Assembly: GCA_963698075.1 (NCBI GenBank) | Contig: OY969116.1 | Span: forward strand, 606,131 to 670,130 | Length of the DNA: 64,000 nucleotides | Direction of reading: 5' to 3' | From: an uncultured Candidatus Berkelbacteria bacterium | GTDB lineage: Bacteria > Patescibacteriota > UBA1384 > UBA12157 > JAENIV01 | Shown: in pieces, positions 17,461 to 40,856 of the stretch | Numbering within the stretch: position 1 is the stretch's first letter | Layout of the letters: the number at the start of each line of letters is the position of its first letter | Notes under the pieces: generated by a model | What the model saw: the letters and a program-made list of their open reading frames with translations, nothing else | What the model was told of the DNA's origin: nothing | Database searches by the model: none | Program-made: the position numbers and the translations under genes

Positions 17461-18219
17461 TTATTTCTTTCGCCATAAAGTCCAAAAATCGAAACGTTCG
17501 ATTTCAGCGAGTTCTTTTGATTCAATCACAATCATATTAGTGGCGTTCTCTCTTATCGTCAAATAACAAATTTGATCTCTCCAAACCCATTTTTCCGCGT
17601 TCGCCCTCCAGGCATTTTTGTATGGTTTATACAAAATATGAGGGCGGCCAACTATTTCTCGATGTTTTTGGGCGGCTTTAGTATCAGGTAAAATCAAATA
17701 AGTTTTAACTCCCGTTTTATCGTTGAATGCCAAATATTTATCGTAGAACTCTTTATCCATCCCGTACCAATATTCCACATTCCCCGTGGACCAAATCAAA
17801 ATCTCATCACCTTTTTTAGCTCCTTTCATATATTGCCTGTACCACTCGCGCATCGCCAGAGGATTCTCATAAACAGTGATTAGAGGAATGGCTCGTTCGG
17901 CGGAGGCTTGAGATTTTAAAACTGGCATAATTTTGAGGACTTTTTCTTTATTTTTTTGGGCAATATCGGCCAAAATGTCTGGTTCAACGGCTTTGTAATA
18001 ATCCTTGTTGCCAAGGGCAATTTTCTTAATCAGACCCTTTCCCATCATCCCAGGCAATAAAAGATAAACCATCTGGCGGGTGTCGTCCATTTTTTGACCT
18101 AATTGGATGGCCGAAGCCGGACCGAGTTTTAGCGCTGTCAAATATAATCGCGCTTCATTTTTATGAAGGCCAATTGCTTCTAATAGATTATAGATTGCGT
18201 CATTGTTCATAGCTTGCAC
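17461..18219 (-). CDS. TrmB-family transcriptional regulator (paralog 1)
   Basis: The N-terminal wHTH contains EARLYLTALKLGPASAIQLGQ (TrmB signature is YLALLELG). The C-terminus ..IIESKELAEIERFDFWTLW is shared with three paralogs in this window. Confidence 0.7.
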   Translation of the reverse strand: MQAMNNDAIYNLLEAIGLHKNEARLYLTALKLGPASAIQLGQKMDDTRQMVYLLLPGMMGKGLIKKIALGNKDYYKAVEPDILADIAQKNKEKVLKIMPVLKSQASAERAIPLITVYENPLAMREWYRQYMKGAKKGDEILIWSTGNVEYWYGMDKEFYDKYLAFNDKTGVKTYLILPDTKAAQKHREIVGRPHILYKPYKNAWRANAEKWVWRDQICYLTIRENATNMIVIESKELAEIERFDFWTLWRKK

Positions 18220-18256
18220 CGAGCTTGTCGAGGTGTAAAATATTTTCTTTACATTA

Positions 18257-18331
18257 TTATATCATATTCTATTTTCAAGGTCAATACTCGTCGTATATAT
18301 ACTTGACATTCGAGCGATAATGTGATATAAT
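18257..18331. promoter_or_regulatory. Divergent consensus promoters between TrmB-1 and cassette C
   Basis: Minus strand: TTGACC-17-TATAAT. Plus strand: TTGACA (18303-18308)-17-TATAAT (18326-18331) with a TG extension. The plus leader contains the hairpin GATGGG..CCTGT-t-ACAGG..CCCATC. Confidence 0.55.
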
Positions 18332-18402
18332 CAGTTGTTCACGATGGGAGATGGCCTGTTACAGGTTAGCCCATCGGAACGAACCTTACAAGGAGCAAAT
18401 CA

Positions 18403-18669
18403 ATGAAACTGGGCTGGATTCTGATGACGCCGGCATTGGTATACATAGCAACGGGGATAATCTATGCCTTCACCCAGAAAAACCCTTTGCTAAATAGCCG
18501 ATTCTACTTCGGTTCCCTCTGGTTCCGCGATCTTCTGGAGAGATTGTTTCCAGGAAAGATCGATCCCAACAAAGATTGGAGGGCTGCTGTCTCTGTTCTG
18601 CTACTGCTAGCCATCTTTATGATGGCCTTTATCGGACTTCGACTACTACTCGATATGCAGGAAGGATAA
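18403..18669 (+). CDS. Small 2-TM membrane protein (GC-rich cassette C)
   Basis: AAGGAG RBS, two hydrophobic helices, 88 aa. Confidence 0.5.
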   Translation: MKLGWILMTPALVYIATGIIYAFTQKNPLLNSRFYFGSLWFRDLLERLFPGKIDPNKDWRAAVSVLLLLAIFMMAFIGLRLLLDMQEG

Positions 18670-18764
18670 TCATCCGCCCCTCGGTTCCCGAGGGGCGCAA
18701 CCTCGAGTTCCATTAGATACAGGGGTATCTAAAGGGATTGGAGAGTTAACAAAGGAGAAGACAC

Positions 18765-19292
18765 ATGTGGACCACAGGAGAACTGGTCGTTCTAGCCGTT
18801 GTAATATGGTTTCTCATCGGCGGCGTGATCATGTTCCGGATTGGCAATGGAACAGCCGCGCCATTCGCTGTATTTCCGTTCCTCTGCCTACTCTGGCCGC
18901 TGGTCCTGATCCTCCGCCGTTACAACAAGAGGTTCCGGAGGCTGTTGGAAGAGAGTACCTGGTTCAGGTGGCCACCTTTGTCTTGCGAATCTTGCCAACT
19001 CATGGGCGACACCGGCCCGAACGATAGGTGTGGAGAGAAGATGAGAAAAGATGAAGCGAAACTGGATCCTCGCAACAGGTGGAATCGCTGGCATCATGAT
19101 CGCCATCCTCGTGCCTCACATCCACAAGGTGGAGATCGCGCGAGCGTTGGCAGATGCCAAGGCGACCATGGCCCCTGTCTGGACGGTCGCCTCTGTAAGC
19201 CGGTTCACCTTCGAAGGCGACAGAAAGTACGAAACTGGCCTAGTCGTTCCGCATGGCTATGTTCGCCTCTGGATCAAGCCGGCCAACGGTGA
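18765..19292 (+). CDS. Small membrane protein; true 3' end uncertain (probably near 19050)
   Basis: AAAGGAG RBS. The first ~95 aa form two transmembrane helices. The rest of the ORF is Arg-rich low-complexity sequence that overlaps the next gene, which is likely a read-through of an open frame in GC-rich DNA. Confidence 0.35.
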   Translation: MWTTGELVVLAVVIWFLIGGVIMFRIGNGTAAPFAVFPFLCLLWPLVLILRRYNKRFRRLLEESTWFRWPPLSCESCQLMGDTGPNDRCGEKMRKDEAKLDPRNRWNRWHHDRHPRASHPQGGDRASVGRCQGDHGPCLDGRLCKPVHLRRRQKVRNWPSRSAWLCSPLDQAGQR

Positions 19293-19539
19293 GAAGTTTG
19301 AGGGGAAGGAAGCGTATCTGATCGTCGCGACCGGGGAAAGCCCCCAGCTCGAACAGTATCTCAAGGTCAAGCCTGGTGACCAGCTGTACTTCGTGCTCGA
19401 CCAAGAGAATCCCGATCATCTGTCAGGATGGGATTCCTTCGAGAAACTACGGCTCTGGATGGTCGTCCCCGAAGAGAAGCAGAAGGACTATCCAGGCGAC
19501 TTTCGCCAGCACCCGGAATACAGATTTCAGCGCTGGTAA
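19051..19539 (+). CDS. Membrane-anchored hypothetical protein (GC-rich cassette C)
   Basis: N-terminal transmembrane helix, then a soluble domain. 162 aa. Confidence 0.5.
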   Translation: MKRNWILATGGIAGIMIAILVPHIHKVEIARALADAKATMAPVWTVASVSRFTFEGDRKYETGLVVPHGYVRLWIKPANGEKFEGKEAYLIVATGESPQLEQYLKVKPGDQLYFVLDQENPDHLSGWDSFEKLRLWMVVPEEKQKDYPGDFRQHPEYRFQRW

Positions 19540-19574
19540 GAACCATGAGCCGACGGGCACACCGCACGAGTTCT

Positions 19575-19612
19575 GGCGGGGGCCAAAAGCCCCCGCCTTT
19601 TTGTTATTTTTT
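19575..19612 (+). terminator. Intrinsic terminator of cassette C
   Basis: GGCGGGGGC-caaaa-GCCCCCGCC followed by TTTTTGTTATTTTTT. Confidence 0.65.
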
Positions 19613-19638
19613 CTTTCCCCGGCGCTCTCTTTACCCCC

Positions 19639-20082
19639 TTATGGCCGCCAGAGTTTTTGCTGAGGGTTGTCTTGAACAATTTTATCCTCGACGACTTTAA
19701 AATACTCTTCAGCCGCATCAACTGCGTTCTTGGCTTCAGTCTTAACAACAGAAATCGGCTCGTAATAAACCTTATTTCTTTTGGTCGACATTCTGTTATA
19801 AATTGCCGTTAATGTATTAAATTTTACCCCTAAAACTGATTTGGCAAACTTTACCATTATTTTGTGGTGTCCTTTTCTAGACCCGGTACGATAACCCTTG
19901 GATAGCATTAAAGCTAAAGTGGTCGTGACTAATGAATCATAAGCTAATTTAAAAGCCGAGTCAGCGTCGCCGTCAATGAGTTTTTTAGCAGTTTGGTAAG
20001 TTTTTGCTGCTTTCTTTAAATAGTCGTTAATTTGTCTGAAGTTAACTGGCTGTCTTCTTAGTTTCGAAAAGTCGAAGCTCAT
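19639..20082 (-). CDS. HEPN-domain protein (toxin partner of MNT)
   Basis: 147 aa, helical, candidate Rx4-6H motif in RTGSRKGHH. It overlaps the upstream MNT gene by 41 nt. Confidence 0.55.
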   Translation of the reverse strand: MSFDFSKLRRQPVNFRQINDYLKKAAKTYQTAKKLIDGDADSAFKLAYDSLVTTTLALMLSKGYRTGSRKGHHKIMVKFAKSVLGVKFNTLTAIYNRMSTKRNKVYYEPISVVKTEAKNAVDAAEEYFKVVEDKIVQDNPQQKLWRP

Positions 20083-20689
20083 TTTCCCCTCCCTTGATAA
20101 AAATTAGTTTTCCATTAATCAGGTCATGAATATAAGTGTCTTCGTTTTTTAATTTTTCTTGAAACTCTTTCTCAAGCAATATATCAACATTAATTTCTCG
20201 CCCAAAGCGTTCGCTGAGTCTATCGATTCGATCGCTAATTTCCTCAAAAACTCTGTTATTCTTCTTGGCAATTACAAAGAGATCAATGTCACTCTCATTA
20301 TCAAGATTCCCCTTTGCGTAAGAGCCATAAATAAATGAAATGAGAATATTTTGATTAGGAATTATACAAGATCCCAGCAATTTAGGTATTCCGACAGTTT
20401 TGACAACAATATCTCGTAAAGAATTGTATATCGGGCTGTCTTTATCTAAAGAATAAAACTTGATATTTCCGACTTTCTCTGATTTGAGTACCCCAGCTTT
20501 TTCAAGATTAATGAGTTCTCGCCTAATATTTCCGATCGACACCTTGAGGATTCTTTCAAGCTCTCGCATATAAAAACGTTCCTTTGAACTAAGCATAAAC
20601 TGGACTAATAATTTAACTCGAGTTCGCGAGCGGAAAAAATTTAGTGGATTGGCTTTTTGTTCGTCTTGTTCCATAGCGTTGTAGTCCAT
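20042..20689 (-). CDS. wHTH-fused minimal nucleotidyltransferase (MNT, antitoxin-like)
   Basis: N-terminal ArsR-like wHTH (FYMRELERILKVSIGNIRRELINLEKAGVL). C-terminal nucleotidyltransferase fold GSYAKGNLDNESDIDLFVI (GS..D.D). Confidence 0.65.
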   Translation of the reverse strand: MDYNAMEQDEQKANPLNFFRSRTRVKLLVQFMLSSKERFYMRELERILKVSIGNIRRELINLEKAGVLKSEKVGNIKFYSLDKDSPIYNSLRDIVVKTVGIPKLLGSCIIPNQNILISFIYGSYAKGNLDNESDIDLFVIAKKNNRVFEEISDRIDRLSERFGREINVDILLEKEFQEKLKNEDTYIHDLINGKLIFIKGGENELRLFETKKTAS

Positions 20690-20727
20690 TCTGACTACAA
20701 TTGTAGTCCATTTTGACTACAAAATGC
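20684..20727. promoter_or_regulatory. Tandem 22-bp palindromic operator overlapping the MNT start codon
   Basis: Minus strand: TTGTAGTCAAAATGGACTACAA | TTGTAGTCAGAATGGACTACAA. Each unit is an inverted repeat TTGTAGTC-N6-GACTACAA, and the second unit contains ATG-GAC-TAC-AAC, the start of the MNT gene. Confidence 0.55.
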
Positions 20728-20789
20728 AATATTTCATTTAACCGCTTTCTTCAACTCCTCCACTTTATCCGTCTTCTCCCACGGCAAGT

Positions 20790-21530
20790 CTAAAAATTAC
20801 TCCATAGCGCCTCAAAAACTCTTCTTTCCGTTTCTGCGATATCTTGGGATTCGATAATGACGGTTGAAAGTTCTCTTTCGGAGGTAAAATAAGCCACTTT
20901 GTCGTGATAAATCAATTTATTTGCACTTACTTTAAAATCTGGGGGGAGAAATTTGATCTCTCTTAGTTCTTCTTTAGCGGTCTCCTTTAGGGTTTCGGAA
21001 AACTCATCTTTTAATACTAACTGGCGAAATTTAATCTTGCGCCTGATTCTGATAGGAATATATTTCTTTAAGATATATTTTTCGGAAATAACCTGATTTA
21101 AGATACTAACATCGCCAAAGTACAATACCTCGTGATTTGTACCCTCCAAACTCTCTTCAACGGCTTTCAGATAGCCCTCTTGACCCTTATAAAATCGCGT
21201 TGATGGCTCAAAAACTGCTTTTTTCTCAATGGCCTTGAGCTCTGGCAAAATATCTTTAATTTTGACGCTGATGTTCTCTAGTCTCGACAATAATTCCTCA
21301 GGTTTCCCGAGAGTATAGTGGGTGCCATATTTGGCCTTATATTGGCCCAAAATGCCCCGAAAAACGAGTTTTTCGGCAATAAGATAGATTGTTGTTCTTT
21401 TAATCCCTGTAGATAAGGAGATTTCCCTAACGGTGGCGCTTTTTGACCTCAAAAGAGCCAAATAGATTTTAATCTCATCATCTGTCAGTCCATAATCCGA
21501 CAGGGCTTTTTTGATGCTTATTTCCGCCAT
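20790..21530 (-). CDS. TrmB-family transcriptional regulator (paralog 2)
   Basis: DEIKIYLALLRSKSATVREISLSTGIKRTTIY wHTH. C-terminus IIESQDIAETERRVFEALW is paralogous to TrmB-1, -3 and -4. Confidence 0.7.
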   Translation of the reverse strand: MAEISIKKALSDYGLTDDEIKIYLALLRSKSATVREISLSTGIKRTTIYLIAEKLVFRGILGQYKAKYGTHYTLGKPEELLSRLENISVKIKDILPELKAIEKKAVFEPSTRFYKGQEGYLKAVEESLEGTNHEVLYFGDVSILNQVISEKYILKKYIPIRIRRKIKFRQLVLKDEFSETLKETAKEELREIKFLPPDFKVSANKLIYHDKVAYFTSERELSTVIIESQDIAETERRVFEALWSNF

Positions 21531-21571: not shown

Positions 21572-21652
21572 GATTATAAACCAGATTCTTACTTTTGTCA
21601 AGCATAAATTATTGTCATATATATTGACATTATATTCACATTGTGCTATAAT
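21572..21652. promoter_or_regulatory. Divergent consensus promoters between TrmB-2 and cassette D
   Basis: Plus strand: TTGACA (21624-21629)-17-TATAAT (21647-21652) with a TG extension. Minus strand: TTGACA-17-TATAAT upstream of TrmB-2. Confidence 0.55.
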
Positions 21653-21694: not shown

Positions 21695-22132
21695 ATGAAA
21701 CTCGTTCGGCTCGTTCGTTCGAAGCAGACTTTTCCGCTTCGGAAGAGCCCCTACTCAATTAGTGATTGGGTAGGGAGAATAGCGTCGCCGTACATGTCTT
21801 GCCCCGATGGTACCAGTATCGACAAGCTTGTGTTGTGTCCAGAGACTGGTCAGGCCGCGATTCTCGTGTCGTACGATGGTGAAAAATGTGAGTTGACCTA
21901 TGCCGGGAATACGCCAGAGAGAGCCGACCCCGGCCTAATAGCTTCGGCAAGAATGCCAGACGGTACACCTGTAAAAGGAGCGGGATTCTGTTTGCGGGCA
22001 CCTTGTATCATCTGTAGCCGGCCCAAATCCCGAAGTTGGACTTGGGTTTACCTCTGCGTCGAAGACAAAGAAAGGCGCAAGATACCTCTTCCTGTCCTAT
22101 CGTTTCTCGACGCGATCGGTCCTGGCGTGTGA
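21695..22132 (+). CDS. Cys-rich small protein, member 1 of a tandem paralog pair (GC-rich cassette D)
   Basis: ATG 21695 after AAGGAG. Shared motifs with its neighbour: CPDG..., TYAGNTPER, C..C SRPKSRSWTWVYLCVEDKERRK. Confidence 0.5.
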   Translation: MKLVRLVRSKQTFPLRKSPYSISDWVGRIASPYMSCPDGTSIDKLVLCPETGQAAILVSYDGEKCELTYAGNTPERADPGLIASARMPDGTPVKGAGFCLRAPCIICSRPKSRSWTWVYLCVEDKERRKIPLPVLSFLDAIGPGV

Positions 22133-22158
22133 AACCACAGGAGAAAAGGAGAAAGACG

Positions 22159-22584
22159 ATGAGAAACGGTACTGTGGTGAAGAAGGATAAGTACACTCTG
22201 AAGAGATGGCTGGACACCATCTACAAGAAAAGCACTTGCCCAGATGGGTCACCAATCACTCAATTTCGTCCCTGTGGTGACCATGGACAGGGATCGCTGG
22301 CCACCATCCTGATCAACGCCTGGTGCACAATCAAAGGGGCGATGGACGACCTTCGAGTAGATGTGACCTACGCCGGTAAGGCGCCTGAAAGAATCACGGA
22401 CGAGACAAGCGAGAGCCTCATCGCTGATTCCGTAATGGGTGTCTTCACGGAATTCAGGATGGACGGTAATAGCATAGTCTGTTCCCGGCAAAGGTTTGGT
22501 AACAACAAACCCATTGCTCATCATGTCTATATGTGTTTGACAAGAGATGAGTGGGAAAGACGCCGGGCGGGCATGAAGAGTTAG
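22159..22584 (+). CDS. Cys-rich small protein, member 2 of the tandem paralog pair
   Basis: ATG 22159 after AAAGGAG. CPDGSPI.., TYAGKAPER, CSRQRFGNNKPIAHHVYMCLTRDEWERRR align with member 1. Confidence 0.5.
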   Translation: MRNGTVVKKDKYTLKRWLDTIYKKSTCPDGSPITQFRPCGDHGQGSLATILINAWCTIKGAMDDLRVDVTYAGKAPERITDETSESLIADSVMGVFTEFRMDGNSIVCSRQRFGNNKPIAHHVYMCLTRDEWERRRAGMKS

Positions 22585-22606
22585 CAACCTTCCGAACGCC
22601 TACCGT

Positions 22607-22636
22607 GGGGCGCGCGAAAGCGCGCCCTTTTGTTTT
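22607..22636 (+). terminator. Intrinsic terminator of cassette D
   Basis: GGGGCGCGC-gaaa-GCGCGCCC followed by TTTTGTTTT. Confidence 0.65.
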
Positions 22637-24250: not shown

Positions 24251-24658
24251 ATGCAGTTTAAGGTGCCCCAGAATATAGATTTGGAAGACAAAATTGTTGG
24301 ACCGCTGACTTTAATCCAGTTTTTGTATGTCCTTGGCGGCGGGGTGATTATCTATTTGCTCTATCTTTCTTTAAATATGCGCTTTCTTTTCTGGGTCCTC
24401 GCCATTCCTATTGGCATTATTGCGGCGTCCTTGGCATTTTTAAAAATCCAAGATCAACCTTTGTCGCATTTTATCAAGGCCGGCTTGATTTATTTAAGCC
24501 AGCCCAAGAAACGCCTCTGGCAACGGGCCGGTCTAGTCAAACCCGTGGTTTTTGCTGTCGCCAAAAAAGAAAAGAAAATCATTGCCCCGCCCAAAAGAAA
24601 AATTGAAAAAAGCGAATTAGAACAATTAGCCCAAATGCTGGACACCCGACGGGTGTAA
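24251..24658 (+). CDS. PrgI/VirB3-like small membrane protein of a T4SS
   Basis: 135 aa, two transmembrane helices, basic C-terminus. It lies immediately upstream of the VirB4-like genes, as in Gram-positive and CPR T4SS loci. Confidence 0.5.
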   Translation: MQFKVPQNIDLEDKIVGPLTLIQFLYVLGGGVIIYLLYLSLNMRFLFWVLAIPIGIIAASLAFLKIQDQPLSHFIKAGLIYLSQPKKRLWQRAGLVKPVVFAVAKKEKKIIAPPKRKIEKSELEQLAQMLDTRRV

Positions 24659-24689
24659 TTATTAGAAATTTCCTCCACAGGAGGTATAG

Positions 24690-25430
24690 TTGGCTTTATT
24701 TAGTAAAAATAAAGAAATTGGCTCCACCCAGGATGCTTTACGCTTTGCCGAAATCCGCGATGGCACCGTGGTCTTAAAAGATGGCAATTTGCGCAAAATC
24801 CTGCTTTGTTCTTCGATTAATTTTTCACTCAAAAGCGAACAGGAACAAAATGCCATTATTTTTCAATATCAGAATTTTCTTAATTCCTTAGACTTTCCGA
24901 TTCAGATCCTGATGCAGTCCAAAAAATTGGATCTTTCCAATTATTTAGCCAAACTTGAAGGCCGGGCCGACGAACAAACCAATGAACTCTTAAGATTACA
25001 AACCAACGATTACGTTGAATTTATTAAGCGCCTGATCAATCTGGCCAATATTATGGACAAGCGTTTTTATGTTGTCGTGCCTTACTTGGTGCCGCCAAAA
25101 ATGGCCTCACCCAAGATTTCAATGCCAGGTAGTAATGAAGCGCCACCGCCAATTTTAAGTGAGGAGGAATTTAATCAATATTCTAAGGAAATTGACCAGC
25201 GGATCCAAGTAATCCAATCGGGTCTGGGTTCGATTGGCATCCGTTCGGCCCTTCTTTCGACCCAACAAATTATCGAATTGCTTTACGGTGTTTATAATCC
25301 CGAAGAGGCCAACAAACAAAAAATTGCCTCCGCCGAAGAGCTTCAAGGAGAAGTCGTTGAGTCCGAGGTTTTCCGACCAAAAGAAGCGCCAACTACGAGA
25401 AAGGAGGAAGATGCCAGCGCCCCAGCCTAA
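24690..25430 (+). CDS. VirB4/TraC-like N-terminal domain protein
   Basis: IRDGTVVLKDGNLRKILLCSSINFSLKSEQEQNAII matches the N-terminal motif of Gram-positive VirB4 (PrgJ/TcpF-type). It overlaps the next ORF by 20 nt. Confidence 0.5.
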   Translation: MALFSKNKEIGSTQDALRFAEIRDGTVVLKDGNLRKILLCSSINFSLKSEQEQNAIIFQYQNFLNSLDFPIQILMQSKKLDLSNYLAKLEGRADEQTNELLRLQTNDYVEFIKRLINLANIMDKRFYVVVPYLVPPKMASPKISMPGSNEAPPPILSEEEFNQYSKEIDQRIQVIQSGLGSIGIRSALLSTQQIIELLYGVYNPEEANKQKIASAEELQGEVVESEVFRPKEAPTTRKEEDASAPA

Positions 25431-27303
25431 TCCGGCGCCGCCAGTCAACCAACAACCAGGCAATTTTTGGCAACAACCAGCCAACACCGGCGCTTCAATC
25501 GCCAGTGGGCCGCAAATTCCTGAGTTTTTCCAGGCCGGCATGGCTTCGGTTTTGGACTTAATTGCCCCGGCCGCTTTTAAAATTGAACCCAGTTTTCTCC
25601 AGCTCGGTAACACTTTTGTCCGGAATCTGTTTGTCTTTACCTACCCCCGCTATGTCCAAACCAATTGGCTTTCGCCAATTATCAATTATGATATTACCTT
25701 GGATATTTCGATGTTCATTTATCCCATCGGCACCAAACAGATGATGGGACAGCTCAAGAAAAAGGCCGGACAGTTGGAATCATCTTTAGCTATTGAAAAA
25801 GAAAAGGGCATGGTTCGCAATCCCGAGCTCGAAACCGCGGTCGAAGATATTGAGGGTTTACGTGATGTCTTGCAACGCGGAGAAATGCGCCTTTTCCAAT
25901 ATGCCCTTTATTTTACCATTTATGCCAAATCAATTGACGAGCTTAATACCATCACCGAACAACTCGAATCCACTTTAGGCGGGATGCTCATTTACACCAA
26001 ACAGTCGCTGTTGCAAATGGAGCAGGGATTTAATTCAACTTTGCCTTTGGGCCTTGATGAGTTAAACGTCCGGCGCAATCTCGACACGGCTTCACTTTCG
26101 ACCACCTTTCCCTTCACTTCGGCGACCTTATCTTCCAATGATGGCATTCTTTATGGCCTAAATCGCCACAATAATTCTTTAATTCTTTTCGATCGCTTTG
26201 AGCTGGAAAATGCCAATTCCGTCGTCTTTGCCAAGGCCGGCGCCGGCAAGTCTTACGCCGTCAAACTTGAAGCCTTGCGCTCGCTCATGCTCGGCACTGA
26301 CGTGGTGGTAATTGACCCCGAAAATGAATACCAAGCTCTTTGCGAGGCCGTCGGCGGTTCCTATTTGCGCATGGCTCTGGATTCTGATAAAAGAATCAAT
26401 CCTTTTGATCTGCCGCGACCCGGCCAGCAAGCCACGGCCGGCGCGGCCGGTGAAGATATTTTGCGCTCCAATATCACCATGCTTCATGGTCTTATTTCGC
26501 TGATGCTTAGCGGTCTTTCGCCCGAAGAGGATGCCATTTTAGAAAAGGGTCTTTTTGAAACCTATGCCTTAAAGGATATCACTGCTGACATTGAATCCCA
26601 AAAAAATCAGCCACCGTTACTTAAAGATCTCCAATCTGTCCTACAAAATATGACCGGCGCTGAAACCATGGTTTCCAAACTTTCTAAATATACTGAAGGC
26701 ACTTTTAAGGGGCTTTTTGACCAACCAACGAACTTTGATCTTGGCTCTGGCTTTGTCGTTTTTAGCGTTCGTGATCTTGAGGACCAACTGCGACCAATTG
26801 CGATGTATATGATTTTAAACTATATCTGGCAACGAGTTCGCTTTAACCTCAAGCGCCGAATCATGATCATTGACGAGGCCTGGTGGATGATGCAGCATGA
26901 GGATTCGGCGAAATTTTTATTTTCCCTGGCCAAAAGGGCCCGCAAATACTATTTGGGATTAACAATTATTTCCCAAGACGTCGAGGATTTCCTCGATTCC
27001 AAATATGGCCGGACCGTCGTCAATAACTCTTCCTTGCAGATTCTTTTGAAACAATCAACCTCTTCGATTGATAAAATCGCCCAAACCTTCAATTTGACTG
27101 AGGGTGAAAAATTCTTGCTTTTGGAATGTGAGGTCGGCGAGGGGCTCTTTTTCGCGGGGCTCAATCACGTGGCGATTAAAGTCATTGCTTCCTATACCGA
27201 AGACCAATTAATTACCACTGACCCGCGCGAGCTTCTGGCCAGACAAACTGGTGGCACCACTGAGGCGCCGGGTGCGGAAAATCAACCCGCCGAAGGATTG
27301 TAA
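25411..27303 (+). CDS. VirB4-like T4SS ATPase
   Basis: ATG 25411 after AAAGGAGGAAG. FVRNLFVFTYPRYV motif, Walker A KAGAGKSY, Walker B IMIIDEAWWMM, and a VIDPENEY hexamer-interface-like motif. Confidence 0.75.
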   Translation: MPAPQPNPAPPVNQQPGNFWQQPANTGASIASGPQIPEFFQAGMASVLDLIAPAAFKIEPSFLQLGNTFVRNLFVFTYPRYVQTNWLSPIINYDITLDISMFIYPIGTKQMMGQLKKKAGQLESSLAIEKEKGMVRNPELETAVEDIEGLRDVLQRGEMRLFQYALYFTIYAKSIDELNTITEQLESTLGGMLIYTKQSLLQMEQGFNSTLPLGLDELNVRRNLDTASLSTTFPFTSATLSSNDGILYGLNRHNNSLILFDRFELENANSVVFAKAGAGKSYAVKLEALRSLMLGTDVVVIDPENEYQALCEAVGGSYLRMALDSDKRINPFDLPRPGQQATAGAAGEDILRSNITMLHGLISLMLSGLSPEEDAILEKGLFETYALKDITADIESQKNQPPLLKDLQSVLQNMTGAETMVSKLSKYTEGTFKGLFDQPTNFDLGSGFVVFSVRDLEDQLRPIAMYMILNYIWQRVRFNLKRRIMIIDEAWWMMQHEDSAKFLFSLAKRARKYYLGLTIISQDVEDFLDSKYGRTVVNNSSLQILLKQSTSSIDKIAQTFNLTEGEKFLLLECEVGEGLFFAGLNHVAIKVIASYTEDQLITTDPRELLARQTGGTTEAPGAENQPAEGL

Positions 27304-27314
27304 TTGAGGACTAA

Positions 27315-28559: not shown

Positions 28560-28571
28560 GGAAGGAGCGAG

Positions 28572-29162: not shown

Positions 29163-29206
29163 TCACAGTAAAATTTTGTATAATATAATTAGCATCAAGG
29201 AGGGGT

Positions 29207-34896: not shown

Positions 34897-35146
34897 ATTA
34901 TCCACAGTTAGTCTCTTATTAAATCTTTGTTGATTAGATTTTAGTAATAATAATGTTTGTGGATCATGGGTATTAATAGATTGTTTGGGTTGTGGAAAGA
35001 CTGGGGATTTTCTTGTGGAAAACAGAAGTATTTTCAGTGGTAAAAATTAATAAACTTAATTTTGTCATATTATCTACTATATATATTAATACTCACAATT
35101 TAAGCAATAAATTAAATCCTCAAGTTATCCACAGCTTATCCACATG
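34897..35146. promoter_or_regulatory. oriC-type DnaA-box cluster (dnaA-dnaN intergenic region)
   Basis: TTATCCACA at 34908-34916, 35125-35133 and 35136-35144, plus variants TGTGGATCA and TTGTGGAAA. The region is AT-rich. Confidence 0.7.
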
Positions 35147-36475
35147 TTAGGCAACGTAGAGCTTTTCTTTGATCATTGTCAGTTCTTTTTTTAAATCATC
35201 ATTGATAGCAATTTCCTTTTCAATTTTCCCCACCCCGTGCATGATGGTGGTATGGTCTTTTTTGTTAAGTTCGCGGCCAATCTTGGGATAAGACAAATTC
35301 ATCTCGTGACGCAAAAGATACATCACGATTTGTCTTGGCCAGACCATGGCCTGGCCTCTTTTTGCCGACAAAATATCAGTGGCCTGGATTTGAAAATATT
35401 CACCCACAATTTTAATGATTTTTCCAACCGACAAATTTTTACCGCGTGACTCGACAATATCTTCCAATACTTTACTGACAACGTCCAAAGAGGCGGTCAA
35501 GCGATTTAATTGACAATGAGCCAAAATGCGATTAATCGAGCCCTCAAGTTCGCGAATATTGGATTCAATATTTTCGGCAATATAATGGACACAATCATCA
35601 TCTAATGGCAAGTTCTTTTCAGCTGATTTAGCCCGCAGGATTGCCTCCCGCATCTCTAAATTCGGCGGTTGAATATCAGCCACCATACCGGCGCCGAAAC
35701 GCGAAGAAAGCCGGTCTTGAATTTGAGGAATGGCTCTGGGTACTCGGTCAGACGTGATCACAATTTGACGGTTGCCTTGATGTAGGGCATTAAAGGTGTG
35801 AAAAAATTCCTCCTGCGTACCTTCTTTTCCGGCCAAAAATTGGATATCATCAACCAAAAAAACATCAACCCCGCGATATTTCTTCTTAAATTCATCCGCC
35901 TTGCCGTTGGAGATTGAAGAGACATAATCGTTGGTAAAACTTTCGCAGGAAACGTAAACAATCTTCTTTTTGGGTGATTTGGCTAAGATTTCGTTACCGA
36001 TTGCCTGGACGAGATGAGTTTTGCCCAAACCCACGCCACCATATAAAAACAGGGGATTGTAAACAACCCCGGGCTTGGAGGCAACCGCTTGGGCCGTGGC
36101 AGCGGCCAAACGGTTGGAATTGCCGATGACAAAATTCTCAAAGCGATATTTGTGATTAAGTTGGGGATGAATTATAGCATCAATTTCTTTCGTCGCGCTA
36201 TCAGCTATTTTTGGCGGCCTAGGAAGTCCTTGAGTCGAAATTTTATAATTGATTTTGGTAATTTGGGGTTCGATTTTTTTGATGGCCTCCAAGATCTGGG
36301 GATGAAATTTGTTTTCCAGCCATTCCTTGGCAAAGCCATTGGGTACGGCAATAGTTGTTTCTGGAGGAACGAAGTCCAAAATAAAAGTATCCTTAAACCA
36401 AGTGGTAAAATTGGCCTTGGACAAGGTAACTTCAAGCTCACCTAAGGCGGTCTGCCAGATTTCTTTGGGATCCAT
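35147..36475 (-). CDS. dnaA: Chromosomal replication initiator DnaA
   Basis: Walker A LFLYGGVGLGKTHL, sensor motifs and a C-terminal DNA-binding helix. Start taken at ATG 36475 (MDPKEIWQTALGEL). Confidence 0.9.
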   Translation of the reverse strand: MDPKEIWQTALGELEVTLSKANFTTWFKDTFILDFVPPETTIAVPNGFAKEWLENKFHPQILEAIKKIEPQITKINYKISTQGLPRPPKIADSATKEIDAIIHPQLNHKYRFENFVIGNSNRLAAATAQAVASKPGVVYNPLFLYGGVGLGKTHLVQAIGNEILAKSPKKKIVYVSCESFTNDYVSSISNGKADEFKKKYRGVDVFLVDDIQFLAGKEGTQEEFFHTFNALHQGNRQIVITSDRVPRAIPQIQDRLSSRFGAGMVADIQPPNLEMREAILRAKSAEKNLPLDDDCVHYIAENIESNIRELEGSINRILAHCQLNRLTASLDVVSKVLEDIVESRGKNLSVGKIIKIVGEYFQIQATDILSAKRGQAMVWPRQIVMYLLRHEMNLSYPKIGRELNKKDHTTIMHGVGKIEKEIAINDDLKKELTMIKEKLYVA

Positions 36476-36630
36476 AACCAAACCTTTGGTTTGGAAATTC
36501 GAAATTCTCACTGCGGAAGCAAGGCATTTAATTCGAAATCCCAAACAAATTCTAAATCCTAATATTTAAATTCTTAATAATTCCTTAATTTTCGGATTTC
36601 GACATTCGTGCTTCGGATTTCCACGCAATC

Positions 36631-36758
36631 TTATCCTATAACCCGATTGCGTGGTTGTCCACAGCGAGTTATCCACAATTGAGCCAATCTCATAATATGT
36701 AAGTTATCCACAGCCTGTCAACACCCGCTTAGTGATTGTGGATTGGGTTGTGGAAAAA
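36631..36758. promoter_or_regulatory. Second DnaA-box cluster upstream of dnaA
   Basis: TTGTCCACA 36655-36663, TTATCCACA 36669-36677 and 36704-36712, TGTGGATTG 36738-36746, TGTGGAAAA 36750-36758. Confidence 0.7.
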
Positions 36759-36835
36759 TTTTATAAGAAAAAAGAGCGGTTTTCGTACGCTCTATCCGTC
36801 CCTAAAGGGACAAGACTTACGGTAGGGGTTTCCCC

Positions 36836-37027
36836 CTACATGCACTCAACGATGTACGCGATCTTCTCGTACGCGCTTCCTTGTTCATCTCGCGCCGAGG
36901 TCCATGTGAAGACCCACTTTGTGCTTGTTCGGGGCAGGCGTCGGAGCTCGTCTTTTATGGGCTTCATTCTCTCCTCGGTCTGCCTGACGATCTCTTCGAT
37001 CCGGCGATACTTCTCCTCAATGTCCAT
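36836..37027 (-). CDS. Hypothetical small protein (GC-rich cassette E)
   Basis: AAGGGAGAAGAAG RBS, 63 aa, charged helical. A terminator-like GAGCG-n-CGCTC plus T6 lies downstream at about 36770-36795 on the minus strand. Confidence 0.4.
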   Translation of the reverse strand: MDIEEKYRRIEEIVRQTEERMKPIKDELRRLPRTSTKWVFTWTSARDEQGSAYEKIAYIVECM

Positions 37028-37146
37028 CTTCTTCTCCCTTGCTTAGTTAAAATCCTACTTCTGTTTCCATGAACTCTTTTCAGAGCTGATGGAGACAGAA
37101 GGGGATGCCGCCGATCGTATTGACCCGGCGGCTCGGTTGGATGTCC

Positions 37147-37515
37147 TTATCTTGTTTTGATGTCGTCAGGGGTGATCCCGCTCTCGGGCAGCAGGTTCAA
37201 CACCCTACCGACGTGGTTACCTTCGGGGTCGAGCACATCGATCACGAAGGCCCGCATCCTTGTTACTTCCCCGGCCGTGAGTTGATTAAGCCCACGGACC
37301 AGGCCTTCCAACAGGGGTCCGATGAGCTGTTGGTCCTCCATCGCATCACCGAGGGGGTTCTGGTTGGGGCGAGGATCATGCTGGAGGACATGGCGCGCGA
37401 CTGAGTTCGTCCACCAGACGCTGCCCGCCCCGCCCGGTCCCACATTGGCTGTTTCCTCACTTTCAAGACGTATCTTGTCCGTGCGGAGAGTGATGAAGGC
37501 GACCAGGTTCTTCAT
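37147..37515 (-). CDS. Hypothetical protein (GC-rich cassette E)
   Basis: Start taken at MKNLVAF (ATG 37515 after GGGAGGTGAG). The longer ORF reaching 37593 would include the promoter -10 box. Confidence 0.5.
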   Translation of the reverse strand: MKNLVAFITLRTDKIRLESEETANVGPGGAGSVWWTNSVARHVLQHDPRPNQNPLGDAMEDQQLIGPLLEGLVRGLNQLTAGEVTRMRAFVIDVLDPEGNHVGRVLNLLPESGITPDDIKTR

Positions 37516-37564
37516 TTTCTCACCTCCCTTCATAACGGGTTGTACCTGATTTTCAGAACTTATG

Positions 37565-37638
37565 ATTATAACACAATCTGCCGAATTTGTCAAGTATTTT
37601 CGACTATATTTGACATCTTAGGTAATACCTGATATACT
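37565..37638. promoter_or_regulatory. Divergent consensus promoters between cassette E and TrmB-3
   Basis: Minus strand: TTGACA (37588-37593 rc)-17-TATAAT (37565-37570 rc) with TG extension. Plus strand: TTGACA 37610-37615, 17 nt, TATACT 37633-37638. Confidence 0.55.
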
Positions 37639-37696
37639 ATTATTAGTCGGTCTTTCCCGACTACTATCCGTCCTATGCTAAAGCTACGGAGGACAA

Positions 37697-38461
37697 GTGG
37701 AATATCTAAAATCTTTACAAAAACTTGGCTTTAATCAAAAAGAGCAAGATGTTTATTTTGCTCTCCTACAGTTGGAGAAAGCCACGGCCAATGAGATCGC
37801 TTATAAATCAAAGGTTAAGCGGCCGACAACTTATGATATTCTCTACCGTCTCGTCTCTGAGGGCTTTGCCGCCAAGGTGTTGGAAAACGATAAGATGAAA
37901 TTTGTTGCTCGGCCGCCGGAAAATTTGTTGGAAATCATCGAAAATCGAAAAAGAGAACTTAAGGCAGATTTACCGGAATTATTGAGCATTTATAATACTA
38001 AAGCCAATAAACCGAAAGTCGCCTATTTCGAAGGCTTAGATGGAGTCATTCAGCTTTACGAGGATACCTTGCTGACCTTAAAATCCGGCGATGAGATCGT
38101 CGCTTATTTTTGTGATTACGAAATCCCTGAACATAACAAATATATGCATGACTATGTTTTGCGCCGGGCTGCGAAAGGGATTAGGGCCCGAGGAATCGGT
38201 CAAGATAAACCTAAGATAAGAGAATTCATCAAAGAGAACAAAAAGCAGTTGCGAACATCTAAACTAGTCAGCGAGAAAGAATACCATCTCAAAAACGAGA
38301 TCAACATTTATGCCAACAAAGTCATTATTATCACCTTCAAACCCGAACTTTTCGGGATCCTCATCGAATCCAAAGAAGTCGCTGACACCCAGCGCGCCAT
38401 CTTCGAAATGGCGTGGAGGGGACTCCCGTCCAGTCTGCGTTCTCCAGGGATTTATAGATAA
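37697..38461 (+). CDS. TrmB-family transcriptional regulator (paralog 3)
   Basis: GTG start after GGAGGA. EQDVYFALLQLEKATANEIAYKSKVKRPTTYDILYRL wHTH. C-terminus LIESKEVADTQRAIFEMAW. Confidence 0.7.
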   Translation: MEYLKSLQKLGFNQKEQDVYFALLQLEKATANEIAYKSKVKRPTTYDILYRLVSEGFAAKVLENDKMKFVARPPENLLEIIENRKRELKADLPELLSIYNTKANKPKVAYFEGLDGVIQLYEDTLLTLKSGDEIVAYFCDYEIPEHNKYMHDYVLRRAAKGIRARGIGQDKPKIREFIKENKKQLRTSKLVSEKEYHLKNEINIYANKVIIITFKPELFGILIESKEVADTQRAIFEMAWRGLPSSLRSPGIYR

Positions 38462-38462
38462 G

Positions 38463-38496
38463 AAAAGGGCGCCGGCCGGTTGGCAAGCGCCCCTCG
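38463..38496. terminator. Bidirectional GC-rich hairpin terminator between convergent TrmB-3 and cassette F
   Basis: GGGCGC-cggccggttggca-GCGCCC, with AAAAG on the plus side and TTTTCTTATC on the minus side. Confidence 0.5.
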
Positions 38497-38535
38497 TCGA
38501 GTGGTTACTGATTCGATCTTCTCTCAGGGCCCCTG

Positions 38536-38736
38536 TCAGGCAGCCCACTTGTGGCTGTATTTGGGATTGGTACAGACCTCCCACCACCCAGGGTCGTCGG
38601 GACCGCTGACAGCCACCTTCGAGCCGCACTTGGGGCAAGGTCGGCGGCTGTAGTACGTCTTCGGCTGGCAAGCCTCTTTCTTCTCCTCTTTCTTCGCCCG
38701 GCGGAAAATCTTCTTGAGCAGTTCTCGGACGTTCAT
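38536..38736 (-). CDS. Small zinc-ribbon protein (GC-rich cassette F)
   Basis: 66 aa. CPKCGSKVAV...C, basic N-terminus. GGAGAAAAG RBS. Confidence 0.5.
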   Translation of the reverse strand: MNVRELLKKIFRRAKKEEKKEACQPKTYYSRRPCPKCGSKVAVSGPDDPGWWEVCTNPKYSHKWAA

Positions 38737-38782
38737 TTCTTTTCTCCGTCATCAGGTTAGTCGCTCGGCCACCGGCCGGTTT

Positions 38783-39466
38783 TCAGTGCGCCCTGTCCCA
38801 GTAGCCCTGTGTGTGGCTCCAGTTCTGCCAGTAGTAGTAGGTTTCCATGGGGAAGACGACTTCGGTGTAGGTGTGAGAAAGACAGGCAAAGATGGACCTC
38901 ACCAGACCTGTTACGGCCTCGAACTCATCCCTTTTCGTTGAAATACAGAGGGCGAAGTTGAGTATGGGTGAGATTCCAGTGGTGACCGGTGGTCTCCCGG
39001 ATTGCCACTTCATGGGCATCAGAGAGAAGGCGCAATAGTTACGGTTGATGCTACCTTCCAACTGGCCCAAGTACCACTCCTCAAACGGCTGAGGATTGGT
39101 CTGCCATTCGGGGAAGTCCTCGCTCACGCTCATTTCCCGGATAAAGCCCGAGAAGTAGAACCAGAGGTAGGGGTTCGGATCCCCTTCCTCGCCCTGATTG
39201 GGATAGACCAACCGCGCCTGGAATGGGCCACTAATAGCCGAGACGAGCCATTCGAGCACAGTCACCAAGCCGGGCGCAGGGGCACAGGAATGATGAGCGG
39301 AACCCATGGTAACTACCGGGTCCTCTAGTCGGTAGAGTACCTTTGAGTGGCTCCCCAGCATGGGGCAGGGTTGAGCTACCATGGTTGGCTGGGCCGGACA
39401 CTTGTTCGACCTCAGCAGAGCCACAAGCTGAACGACCAGAACAGCAACAACAAGCACGATTAGCAT
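38783..39466 (-). CDS. Secreted hypothetical protein (GC-rich cassette F)
   Basis: AAAGGAG RBS. Signal peptide MLIVLVVAVLVVQLVALL. Trp/Tyr-rich mature domain. Confidence 0.5.
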   Translation of the reverse strand: MLIVLVVAVLVVQLVALLRSNKCPAQPTMVAQPCPMLGSHSKVLYRLEDPVVTMGSAHHSCAPAPGLVTVLEWLVSAISGPFQARLVYPNQGEEGDPNPYLWFYFSGFIREMSVSEDFPEWQTNPQPFEEWYLGQLEGSINRNYCAFSLMPMKWQSGRPPVTTGISPILNFALCISTKRDEFEAVTGLVRSIFACLSHTYTEVVFPMETYYYWQNWSHTQGYWDRAH

Positions 39467-39481
39467 TTCCTTTCTCCTTTT

Positions 39482-39943
39482 TCAGGGTGACTTCATTACC
39501 CTTGTTAGCGCTCGAACGATCTTCGGGGCCATTCGGCTGCGAAATCTGGCGTAGGCTGAGATTGCGCCTGGCCCAGGTCGAAGGCCCAACAGCTCTGCCT
39601 CATAGGACCCTAACCGCTGCCCACAAGAATCATAGAAACAGACATATATCCTCCAGTTGGCTCGATAGGTTCCATTGACCGGCCGCTCTGACATGGATTG
39701 GTTAACGTCCCCGAGGATCCTATAGTCAGCTTGGACTTCCAGGCACATCTGTCGTGCTTGTTCCCAGTCTTGGTCCGGGAAATGAGACACCACGGCGGCC
39801 CCGCGCTTATTTAATTCTTCGCAGACTAAGTAATGAAGCACGCCGAAGCCGTCTCCTTTGAACGGATATCCTTGAAGGTCCTGCCAGAGACATACAGCGA
39901 CTCTCAGCGATATTTGGGAACATCTAACGAATGGGTTTGCCAT
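39482..39943 (-). CDS. Hypothetical protein (GC-rich cassette F)
   Basis: Start taken at MANPFVRCSQ (ATG at 39943 after AAAGGAGAAG). Several Cys residues. The longer ORF reaching 40054 runs into the promoter. Confidence 0.5.
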   Translation of the reverse strand: MANPFVRCSQISLRVAVCLWQDLQGYPFKGDGFGVLHYLVCEELNKRGAAVVSHFPDQDWEQARQMCLEVQADYRILGDVNQSMSERPVNGTYRANWRIYVCFYDSCGQRLGSYEAELLGLRPGPGAISAYARFRSRMAPKIVRALTRVMKSP

Positions 39944-39971
39944 CCGGTCTTCTCCTTTGTTCAGGTACAAC

Positions 39972-40106
39972 CGATAGAATTGGCTTCTGGCCGATTTTCT
40001 ATCGTTCAAGAGATTATAGTATAAATGGTATAAAATGTCAATAGGTAGAGACATTAATTGTTAAAATAAGGTTAATATTGACTACTATTGATAAATTGTG
40101 TATAAT
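39972..40106. promoter_or_regulatory. Divergent consensus promoters between cassette F and TrmB-4, plus an operator-like palindrome
   Basis: Minus strand: TTGACA (40037-40042 rc)-18-TATAAT (40013-40018 rc). The leader holds the inverted repeat CGATAGAA (39972-39979)-N17-TTCTATCG (39997-40004). Plus strand: TTGACT 40078-40083, 17 nt, TATAAT 40101-40106. Confidence 0.5.
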
Positions 40107-40118
40107 AAATATACAAAT

Positions 40119-40856
40119 ATGGAAAATATTGATTTATCCCCTTTCGGCTTAAATCCAAATCAGGCCAAAATATACCTGGCCTTGCTTGAATTGGGCCAGG
40201 CCAATATTTTAGAGATTGCCAACAAAGCCGGTTTGAGCCGGATCACAGTTTATAACGAGCTCGACGATCTCTTGGCCTTTGGCTATGCCAGTTTTGTTAT
40301 TCAGGGTAAAAGAAAGCTATATTTGCCAGAGCCGCCCCGAAAACTGGAGAAAAGACGGCTTTTCAGGGAGAAAATCGCCCAAGAGACCCTTCCTCAACTG
40401 GAGAAGATGTACGCCTCTGTCACCCACCGGCCATCAGTTAAATTTTATGAGGGGAGAGAAGGTTTAATTACTATGGTTGAAGATGTCCATGCCACGGTTC
40501 CTGATGGCAGTCGTTACGATGTGATGTATAATTCTGAAGCCGAAATCGCCTTGGTGGGTCGTGAAAATTGGAACCGATGGCTTGAGGCGAGGAAAAAGCG
40601 GGGGATTTGGGTCAGGTTAATCTGTGAGAAAACCAGGGAAAGCAAAAAATGGGATAAAGAAGGCGAAAAAACTAACCGAATTGTCAGATTCTTACCCAGG
40701 GGCCAAAAGGTATTTGTCAGCTATCATATTTACGAGAATAAAGTTTCCATTTTTTCTTTAACCGAACCAGTGGTCGGCGTGATTATCGAGAACAAAGAAA
40801 TCGCCGATATGCAAAGAATGCAGTTTGAATATATGTGGCAGGCCTTGAAGGGTTGA
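40119..40856 (+). CDS. TrmB-family transcriptional regulator (paralog 4)
   Basis: NQAKIYLALLELGQANILEIANKAGLSRITVY is a near-consensus TrmB wHTH. ATG 40119 lies about 13 nt after the -10 box, so the mRNA would be leaderless or nearly so. C-terminus IIENKEIADMQRMQFEYMW. Confidence 0.7.
   Translation: MENIDLSPFGLNPNQAKIYLALLELGQANILEIANKAGLSRITVYNELDDLLAFGYASFVIQGKRKLYLPEPPRKLEKRRLFREKIAQETLPQLEKMYASVTHRPSVKFYEGREGLITMVEDVHATVPDGSRYDVMYNSEAEIALVGRENWNRWLEARKKRGIWVRLICEKTRESKKWDKEGEKTNRIVRFLPRGQKVFVSYHIYENKVSIFSLTEPVVGVIIENKEIADMQRMQFEYMWQALKG

Follow-up and report, generated by a model that had tools for sequence, protein, structure and literature searches.

TrmB and TrmBL1 of P. furiosus and T. 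litoralis are dimeric regulators of about 340 amino acids (aa) that carry the PF01978 DNA-binding domain and a sugar-binding C-terminal subdomain, and act locally, via palindromes near promoters, on the sugar transporter operons beside them. TrmBL2 (TK0471/PF0496 of Thermococcales), a single abundant protein of about 250–265 aa, lacks the sugar-binding subdomain and joins an N-terminal TrmB-type winged helix-turn-helix (wHTH) to a long helix and a phospholipase D (PLD)-like alpha/beta C-terminal domain; it forms chromatin, represses genes globally and acts as a roadblock to SMC at AT-rich sites (PMC3031468, PMC11840125). Gene pairs in which an autoregulated repressor is transcribed divergently from its target, across a shared control region with back-to-back promoters, are familiar as classical divergons (TetR/tetA, LysR-type). 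Integrons likewise place a conserved gene divergently from the promoter of variable, often orphan, cassettes (intI–Pc–attI–cassettes), and the ompA and aprE leaders begin with a stabilising stem-loop. Here we analyse a 64,000-nucleotide (nt) stretch of a Candidatus Berkelbacteria contig (OY969116.1, positions 606,131–670,130; hereafter the window), which spans the replication-origin region of this Patescibacteria genome and in which four TrmB-family genes each stand divergently to a cassette of genes rich in guanine and cytosine (GC).

To our knowledge, Patescibacteria have tiny genomes in which few regulators can be recognised, and little is known of how accessory and surface genes are controlled and renewed in them; a literature search returned no paper naming both 'TrmB' and 'Patescibacteria'. 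We consider it probable that each of the four ancient TrmB-family paralogues, which belong to a bacterial Berkelbacteria/Patescibacteria branch, forms a 'divergon' with a swappable accessory cargo unit. A regulator-target divergon of the TrmB family is in itself of a known kind; the leader motif of the cargo units and the arrangement of a conserved platform with variable GC-rich cargo both appear not to have been described.

Four ancient TrmB paralogues with a TrmBL2-like predicted build

A first-pass annotation, made from the sequence alone, had proposed four mutually homologous TrmB-family regulators in this window, and alignment and profile searches bear this out. TrmB-1 (T1; 17461–18210, minus strand, 249 aa), TrmB-2 (T2; 20790–21530, minus strand, 246 aa), TrmB-3 (T3; 37697–38461, plus strand, 254 aa) and TrmB-4 (T4; 40119–40856, plus strand, 245 aa, followed by rpmH and rnpA) scored 40.2 bits (E 3e-10), 47.4 bits (E 1.8e-12), 60.3 bits (E 1.6e-16) and 44.6 bits (E 1.3e-11), respectively, with the Pfam TrmB model PF01978, all above its gathering cut-off of 25.6 bits. 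The T1 start, initially put at 18219, lies instead at 18210 and yields a protein identical to database entry P0001; T4 is identical to P0121, and exact-sequence look-up of T2 and T3 returned no record. The four align from end to end at 19–21% identity, with 20 invariant columns that include the I-E..A..R..F..W positions of a C-terminal block, IIESKE..A..R..F..W, shared by all of them; no HKD-type catalytic residue is invariant. A profile of T1–T4 recovered 388 proteins (E ≤ 1e-5) and, among the best 120 of these, the nearest paralogue was T1 for 78 (45–76% identity), T3 for 20, T4 for 22 and T2 for one. Loci with T1 orthologues come from Candidatus Berkelbacteria, the Patescibacteria group and Candidatus Saccharibacteria. 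Because T1, T3 and T4 each have a separate orthologue set, the four are, as judged from these comparisons, ancient paralogues and not recent duplicates.

The AlphaFold (AF2) model of T1, computed with 42 orthologues in the alignment, has a predicted local distance difference test (pLDDT) value of 90.7 and consists of a wHTH, a long helix (residues 78–104) and an alpha/beta domain. In a Foldseek comparison with the PDB, the top eight chains were all TrmBL2 (5bqt/5bpd/5bpi; E 1e-12, 264–276 columns), with a template modelling score of only 0.37–0.41 and a differing orientation of the domains; TrmB 3qph was the next match, and the C-terminal domain resembles the PLD-fold proteins PLD3 and F13. 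Likeness at the sequence level was confined to the helix-turn-helix (HTH). A PDB profile search found the HTH of 3qph only, and PADLOC gave only weak, HTH-level matches to its Csa3/CasR models. For T3, the match to the NCBIfam TrmBL2 equivalog NF041141 is limited to residues 10–92 and, at 24 bits, falls far below the cut-off of 530, and the TrmB/TrmBL1 equivalogs NF040851 and NF047390 reached 15–30 bits, in the HTH only, against cut-offs of 600–650. At 245–254 aa, the regulators lack the sugar-binding subdomain of the ~340-aa TrmB and TrmBL1, as does TrmBL2. Going by the model, T1–T4 are TrmB-family proteins of TrmBL2 build, with a wHTH, a putative long dimerisation helix and a predicted non-catalytic PLD-like C-terminal domain, that fall outside the TrmB, TrmBL1 and TrmBL2 equivalog families. 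They differ from TrmBL2 in being bacterial and in forming many divergent paralogues per genome; they represent a TrmBL2-like regulator family expanded in a bacterial lineage.

Back-to-back promoters and paralogue-specific palindromes

Scanning for sigma-70-type promoters (TTGACA-N17-TATAAT, matches out of 12) revealed two back-to-back promoters with 11 or 12 matches in all four control regions, with −35 boxes 16–36 bp apart. Cassette C (plus strand, 18303–18331, 12/12) and T1 (minus strand, 18284–18256, 11/12) share the segment 18256–18331, cassette D (plus strand, 21624–21652, 12/12) and T2 (minus strand, 21601–21573, 12/12) the segment 21573–21652, cassette E (minus strand, 37593–37565, 12/12) and T3 (plus strand, 37610–37638, 11/12) the segment 37565–37638, and cassette F (minus strand, 40041–40013, 12/12) and T4 (plus strand, 40078–40106, 11/12) the segment 40013–40106. 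Divergence, GC contrast and paired promoters agree with the initial description, but the spacing of 110–190 bp given there does not hold. The longer open reading frames (ORFs) called for the cargo run into the promoters, and because the start codons were moved out of these (to 21695 in D, 37515 in E and 39943 in F), the gaps from TrmB to cargo start codon become 164–192 bp across the four modules.

On their TrmB side, the T1, T3 and T4 control regions contain palindromes that we regard as candidate operators. TGTAAA-N8-TTTACA (18234–18253) lies between the T1 −10 box and start codon and is kept in the leaders of T1 orthologues; TAGTCGG-N6-CCGACTA (37644–37663) has the corresponding position in T3 and is kept in the related loci L003, L033, L037 and L017; and TGTATA-N5-TATACA (40099–40115) overlaps the T4 −10 box and is kept in the window, L002 and L031. 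Each palindrome occupies the same place within its orthologue set and differs from those of the other paralogues, and each occurs once in the window, where the T1 and T3 palindromes have no second perfect copy. T3 loci moreover conserve a CGACTA half-site between the two −35 boxes. Paralogue-specific palindromes of this kind are the typical signature of an autoregulated dimeric repressor and suggest autoregulation here; they also offer a plausible handle on the neighbouring cargo promoter, and supply directly testable operator predictions for organisms not yet cultured. Dimeric regulators with palindromes near promoters and local regulation of an adjacent operon would recall TrmB and TrmBL1, although the predicted targets are orphan or accessory genes and not sugar transporters.

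The palindromes also bear on a role like that of archaeal TrmBL2, in which the regulators would coat or bound DNA, insulate or silence stretches of compositionally foreign sequence or give order to the origin region, instead of working as classical ligand-responsive local repressors. TrmBL2 is the top full-length structural match, its chromatin, repressor and roadblock activities are established (PMC3031468, PMC11840125), and several genomes have a pair of modules placed between oriC/dnaA and rpmH. Yet the presence of at least four divergent paralogues, each specific palindrome being conserved at the regulator's own promoter opposite a cargo unit, points to sequence-specific local action, and the match to the TrmBL2 equivalog (24 versus 530 bits) stops at the HTH region; we regard a chromatin role as quite unlikely.

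A conserved hairpin opens many cargo leaders

The leader of cassette C (18337–18396, plus strand) forms a hairpin of the pattern GTTC-A-CGATGGG ... CCTGT-N-ACAGG (inner stem) ... CCCATCG-GAAC, followed by G-N-ACCTTA and then by the Shine-Dalgarno region (ACCTTACAAGGAG); this leader folds at −24.3 kcal/mol (z −3.2). A covariance model, R1, built on nine copies of the motif, scored 71 bits here and 49.7 bits at the corresponding hairpin of cassette F (40009–39953, minus strand). R1 identified 12 instances in at least eight genomes, every one of them in a cargo leader divergent from a TrmB gene, and gave no other significant match in 278 kb, nor across the entire window with filters off. Hairpin-bearing cargo leaders are found in modules of the T1, T3 and T4 types, among which regulator identity is only about 20%. 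The leader usually starts 5 nt past the cargo −10 box, and sequence likeness between genomes ends about 10 nt past the hairpin; the T4 leader, for example, precedes an orphan gene in the window and L002 but a radical S-adenosylmethionine (SAM) gene in L031. A pattern scan of metagenomes for the leader returned 10 loci; the three genuine ones all have a TrmB gene in divergent orientation, and the other seven are chance matches within coding regions. Rfam 15 had no match at leaders or cassettes, whether at the gathering score or at E ≤ 1, so that the motif is a 5' leader element outside Rfam and tied specifically to TrmB modules.

Stem sequences vary in a compensatory manner (GATGGG/CCCATC, GATGAA/TTCATC, GATAGAA/TTCTATC, CAATCGGATA/TATCCGGTTG). 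The leader alignment, itself fitted to the covariance model, has 82% paired cells compared to 31–48% in slid controls, and 17 of its cells carry double changes compared to 5.9±1.9 in shuffles. G.U pairs in the stem are workable on the cargo-sense strand only, and the L038 leader accommodates an additional stem inside the same outer helix (z −5.0). We infer that the hairpin is an RNA element, serving as a 5'-terminal stabiliser and possibly also as a protein-binding site, and that the ACCUU...AAGGAG element behind it can pair with, and partly mask, the ribosome-binding site. Like the stem-loops of the ompA and aprE leaders, it would place a stable hairpin a few nt from the predicted transcription start and upstream of the ribosome-binding site. 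It differs from these in belonging to no Rfam family and in its flanks conserved in sequence (GTTCAC...GGAACNACCTTA), which suggest an additional binding partner.

The inverted repeat CGATAGAA-N17-TTCTATCG in the cassette F leader, which had been put forward as an operator, is present (40003–39971, minus strand) but lies within this hairpin. Because the same hairpin serves modules with regulators about 20% identical, the repeat is probably not a paralogue-specific operator and is better read as a copy of the leader hairpin common to T1-, T3- and T4-type modules; the palindromes on the TrmB side are the better operator candidates.

The bulged base and two tiers of the hairpin loosely resemble folded attC sites of integrons, and a dedicated system for integrating foreign genes was among the initial suggestions. 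In such a gene-capture platform, the TrmB gene, the bidirectional promoter and the leader hairpin would be a docking site for integron-like site-specific insertion, with the hairpin as the recombination site. The swapping of cargo exactly behind the conserved leader and a junction within the T3 3' end, both described below, would fit. Against it, and because no integrase or attC-like sites were found, the integration system is left unsupported: Pfam scans of all neighbours revealed no tyrosine or serine recombinase adjoining any module, and the only recombinase in the window (serine, 43232–44593) belongs to a separate tRNA-Ser island; no attC-like repeats occur between cargo ORFs, and R1 matched 5' leaders only, with no second hairpin copy between or after cargo ORFs (whole window, filters off); the motif GTTC...GAAC is unlike the integron core-site pattern; and the G.U pairs point to RNA rather than to DNA folded on both strands. 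TrmB modules further differ from integrons in having no array of promoterless cassettes and in a hairpin that is a transcribed 5' leader. We find gene capture of this kind improbable.

The GC-rich cassettes C to F encode orphan proteins

Cassette C (18403–19597, plus strand) comprises an 88-aa protein with two transmembrane segments (18403–18669), a transmembrane ORF that starts at 18765 and whose frame and end are uncertain, the N-terminally anchored 162-aa orphan C162 (19051–19539) and a terminator (19575–19597). Cassette D (21695–22628, plus strand) consists of D1 (21695–22132), D2 (22159–22584) and a terminator (22607–22628), D1 and D2 being tandem Cys-rich paralogues (E 2e-8) with a conserved Cys pattern and TYAG..PER. 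Cassette E (36836–37515, minus strand) holds E122 (37515–37147) and E63 (37027–36836) and adjoins the DnaA-box cluster upstream of dnaA (36655–36757), about 80 bp from it. Cassette F (38536–39943, minus strand) holds F153 (39943–39482), F227 (39466–38783), which has an N-terminal transmembrane segment, and F66 (38736–38536), which is zinc-ribbon-like with a CPxC motif. The terminators of C and D are strong intrinsic ones. Between T3 and cassette F, where a bidirectional terminator had been proposed, a GC-rich hairpin (38467–38492, minus strand) serves as the terminator of cassette F; it has a T-run for the minus-strand transcript only and is not clearly bidirectional.

The partner ORFs have GC contents of 0.47–0.56 and the TrmB genes of 0.38–0.43, in a window where gene GC is very uneven (0.30 to 0.66). 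Products from the window cassettes matched nothing in Pfam, NCBIfam, PADLOC or PHROGs. F227 found no homologue among 5.8 billion proteins, an exhaustive profile search with D1/D2 found only themselves, and C162 had no real homologue in a multi-billion-protein search; these searches returned self-matches and low-complexity noise only. With blastn, cassette F matched no phage sequence and cassette C no plasmid sequence, and the AF2 model of D1 was unusable (pLDDT 33). GC-rich islands in AT-rich genomes are often RNA genes, and the lack of any protein family match to a cassette ORF might suggest that the cassettes are structured non-coding RNAs. This is scarcely credible, and we rejected it on the three-periodic GC of the called frames, in which GC is high at third and low at second codon positions. 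D1 and D2 are paralogous at the protein level with conserved cysteines, several products have signal-anchor or transmembrane segments, the genes start with a Shine-Dalgarno sequence and ATG, and Rfam matches are absent even at E ≤ 1. Because of the three-periodicity and the D1/D2 paralogy, the cassettes are protein-coding.

One junction of cassette F can be placed at about 38424, inside the T3 3' end, because it is where GC-rich DNA begins that the T3 C-terminus departs from all orthologues: its last ~10 residues end in ...WRGLPSSLRSPGIYR, compared to ...WRG(I/V)(K/G)G in every orthologue. The other junction lies directly behind the leader.

Cargo is exchanged between related genomes while the platform persists

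We compared about 25 related loci and, from about 20 related contigs, 36 pairs of a TrmB gene and its upstream neighbour. L002, L003, L017, L033 and L037 have, like the window, one or two [cargo <-][-> TrmB] modules between dnaA and rpmH/rnpA, and the cargo proteins in this position are mutually unrelated across these genomes. An all-against-all comparison of cargo found almost no relationships, the exceptions being D1/D2 and a weak pair (L033 c115 and L037 c133); C162 and L034 c182 were not significantly similar. Elsewhere the cargo includes radical SAM enzymes, SAM methyltransferases, small membrane proteins, one secreted protein and many orphans. Conservation covers the TrmB gene, the two promoters and the leader as far as about ACCTTA, and the coding cargo behind them is replaced between related genomes. 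In this, the modules depart from classical divergons, whose targets are conserved with the regulator, are not compositionally deviant and do not share one structured leader among regulators as little as ~20% identical.

The GC contrast seen in the window recurs in related Patescibacteria. Relative to its own TrmB gene, the upstream neighbour is 8.7 GC points richer on average (31/36 pairs positive, Wilcoxon p 2e-6) and relative to the other genes of the locus 5.8 points richer (p 8e-7), whereas TrmB genes are 2.7 points poorer than those other genes (p 4e-4) and their downstream neighbours show no difference; the loci being related, the p-values overstate independence, though the cargo genes themselves differ from locus to locus. 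Expression-linked codon bias was ruled out as a cause of the excess, since GC is unremarkable in the ribosomal protein genes of a relative. A foreign origin or unusual selection is possible. Because they are GC-richer, orphan and often membrane or secreted, the cargo genes are probably foreign or very fast-evolving surface or accessory genes. The excess is consistent across genomes of differing base composition and may point to a path by which genes enter, or are born in, these symbionts.

The nature of the cargo raises the further alternative of addiction or toxin-like modules, in which small hydrophobic proteins would be toxic effectors held in check by a TrmB repressor and a translation-limiting leader, as in regulator-toxin pairs or type I toxin leaders. 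The first cargo gene encodes a small membrane protein in all five T1-type modules (5/5), hydrophobic or transmembrane-like segments occur in 14/26 cargo proteins compared to 91/300 ORFs overall, the modules shift genomic neighbourhood, and MNT/HEPN toxin-antitoxin pairs are often adjacent. However, radical SAM enzymes, methyltransferases and soluble orphans are found among the cargo as well, PADLOC, PHROG and NCBIfam returned no matches, and vertical conservation keeps the TrmB paralogues at fixed positions such as dnaA–rpmH; this alternative strikes us as very unlikely.

The MNT/HEPN (HepT) pairs recur in several genomes directly downstream of, or beside, TrmB modules. That of the window (19639–20689, minus strand; MNT 20042–20689, HEPN 19639–20082, by Pfam) is co-directional with and downstream of T2, and others lie at L018 2752–3367, where the order TrmB–MNT–HepT is also present, and L031 2486–3200. 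Other variations on the module were observed in single loci. L005 has three tandem repeats of [~150-aa ORF <-][-> TrmB][~84 aa][~140 aa]. In L002, a GIY-YIG endonuclease gene (9654–9950, plus strand) lies between a T3 orthologue and its cargo promoter and leader (9387–9450), beyond which is a radical SAM-SPASM gene, and looks like an insertion splitting a module. Two of the three TrmB genes of L002 are directly followed by genes of the 23S_rRNA_IVP family (four-helix bundle; 3373–3924 and 12593–13123, plus strand), which have no counterpart in the window.

Proposed regulated accessory divergons and the case against them

Regulated accessory modules are, from the sequence comparisons, a reasonable reading of these pairs. 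In the divergon that we propose, the TrmB gene has its own near-consensus promoter, with a paralogue-specific palindrome across the −10 box or transcription start. A second near-consensus promoter, 16–36 bp behind the TrmB −35 box and firing the opposite way, would drive a short accessory unit closed by an intrinsic terminator. A TrmB dimer would bind its palindrome and repress its own gene and, from the shared control region, would also gate the cargo promoter until released by a signal sensed via the C-terminal domain. In many modules, C and F among them, the cargo mRNA would open with the two-tier hairpin as a stabiliser at its 5' end, and the ACCUU...AAGGAG element after it would modulate access to the ribosome-binding site. 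The proposal joins observed homology, architecture, promoters, conserved palindromes, leader covariation, cargo turnover and GC contrast to a presumed regulation of cargo by TrmB, in which DNA binding, the direction of regulation, leader function and cargo origin are postulated. Of the earlier idea of a family of regulated accessory cassettes, the repeated conserved architecture and the variable cargo stand, and the regulation itself is our supposition. What sets these loci apart is a repeated module in which regulator, promoters and RNA leader persist while the cargo is exchanged.

Several observations count against such a proposal. Neither near-consensus promoters nor GC-rich islands are exclusive to the TrmB/cassette pairs: such promoters are common in this genome and occur at non-TrmB sites of the window, and islands without TrmB lie at 5962–6936 and 9656–15590, so that part of the pattern may be general genome mosaicism. 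The clearest palindromes are on the TrmB side, which favours autoregulation and not necessarily control of the cargo. Cassettes D and E lack the hairpin and have shorter, different leaders, leaving two of the four window cassettes with it. Compensatory changes alone would equally fit a palindromic DNA site, RNA being favoured only by the G.U pairs and the strand asymmetry, and the fitting of the covariation alignment to its model and the relatedness of the loci, noted above, belong here too. Finally, the upstream neighbour is not GC-rich in L012, L013 and L014 and not divergent in L007 and L014.

Some of these points would suit adjacency without regulation, in which TrmB autoregulates only or acts elsewhere, and GC-rich accessory genes pile up in permissive intergenic spots of a mosaic genome. 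The palindromes chiefly on the TrmB side, the GC-rich islands that have strong promoters but no TrmB, and the finding of TrmB orthologues in differing neighbourhoods are all in keeping with this. On the other hand, most of the ~36 TrmB genes are divergently arranged, the GC excess is specific to the upstream and not the downstream neighbour, the leader motif is restricted to the cargo side of TrmB genes, and conservation extends to the spacing of the promoters and to the T3 half-site located between the −35 boxes. We judge mere adjacency unlikely, while keeping it in view, and favour the regulated divergon.

An extension of the divergon model, which we offer as speculation and think rather unlikely, is a lineage-specific 'expression dock' made up of the TrmBL2-like gene, the structured leader and the bidirectional consensus promoter, in which foreign or newly born GC-rich genes, mostly for surface proteins, would be taken in, gated and tried out, with exchange at a defined junction behind the leader. 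If so, the TrmB paralogues would be gatekeepers of compositionally foreign DNA in an AT-rich host, a mirror of AT-targeting xenogeneic silencers.

Other features of the window

The gene dnaA (35147–36544) lies on the minus strand together with dnaN, recF and dciA, and rpmH (40904–41038), followed by rnpA, on the plus strand, as do yidD, yidC and jag. DnaA boxes (TTATCCACA and one-mismatch variants) flank dnaA in two clusters (34898–35144 and 36655–36757), an arrangement suggestive of a bipartite oriC.

At 9067–15590, the compositional contrast of the TrmB modules is repeated with another small gene: an AT-rich DUF5663 gene (9067–9438, minus strand, GC 0.38) is transcribed divergently from an operon of very high GC (0.57–0.63, up to 0.86 at third codon positions) that encodes an Hsp70-family protein, a beta-CASP protein and two further proteins of unknown kind and looks like a foreign accessory system. 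We considered whether its GC-rich 'RNase J' and Hsp70 genes reflect a regional drift of GC in core genes and rejected this, since the beta-CASP protein shares only 28% identity with a relative's RNase J and is therefore a divergent paralogue, within an island of foreign appearance. The gene with the highest GC in the window (0.66; 5962–6936, plus strand) has its own near-consensus promoter (5797–5825) and encodes a 324-aa proline-rich protein with a signal peptide, one transmembrane segment and no family match.

Between the two pairs of TrmB modules lies a type IV secretion-like cluster (24251–32224, plus strand) encoding a PrgI-family protein, a VirB4/TraG-like ATPase, an M15 peptidase, a PEGA-domain protein and a 1005-aa unknown protein. 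An AT-rich island beginning at tRNA-Ser (42959–43048) contains the large serine recombinase (43232–44593) and, between this and a retroelement, a full-length match to Rfam LOOT RNA (RF03000; 44756–44881, plus strand; 74 bits, gathering score 46.4). The retroelement is a complete diversity-generating one (46144–51113, minus strand), with a reverse transcriptase (46144–47214), a 121-nt template repeat (47558–47678) and two variable repeats at the 3' ends of target genes (47974–48094 and 49024–49144); all differences between the template and the first variable repeat (22/22) fall on template adenines.

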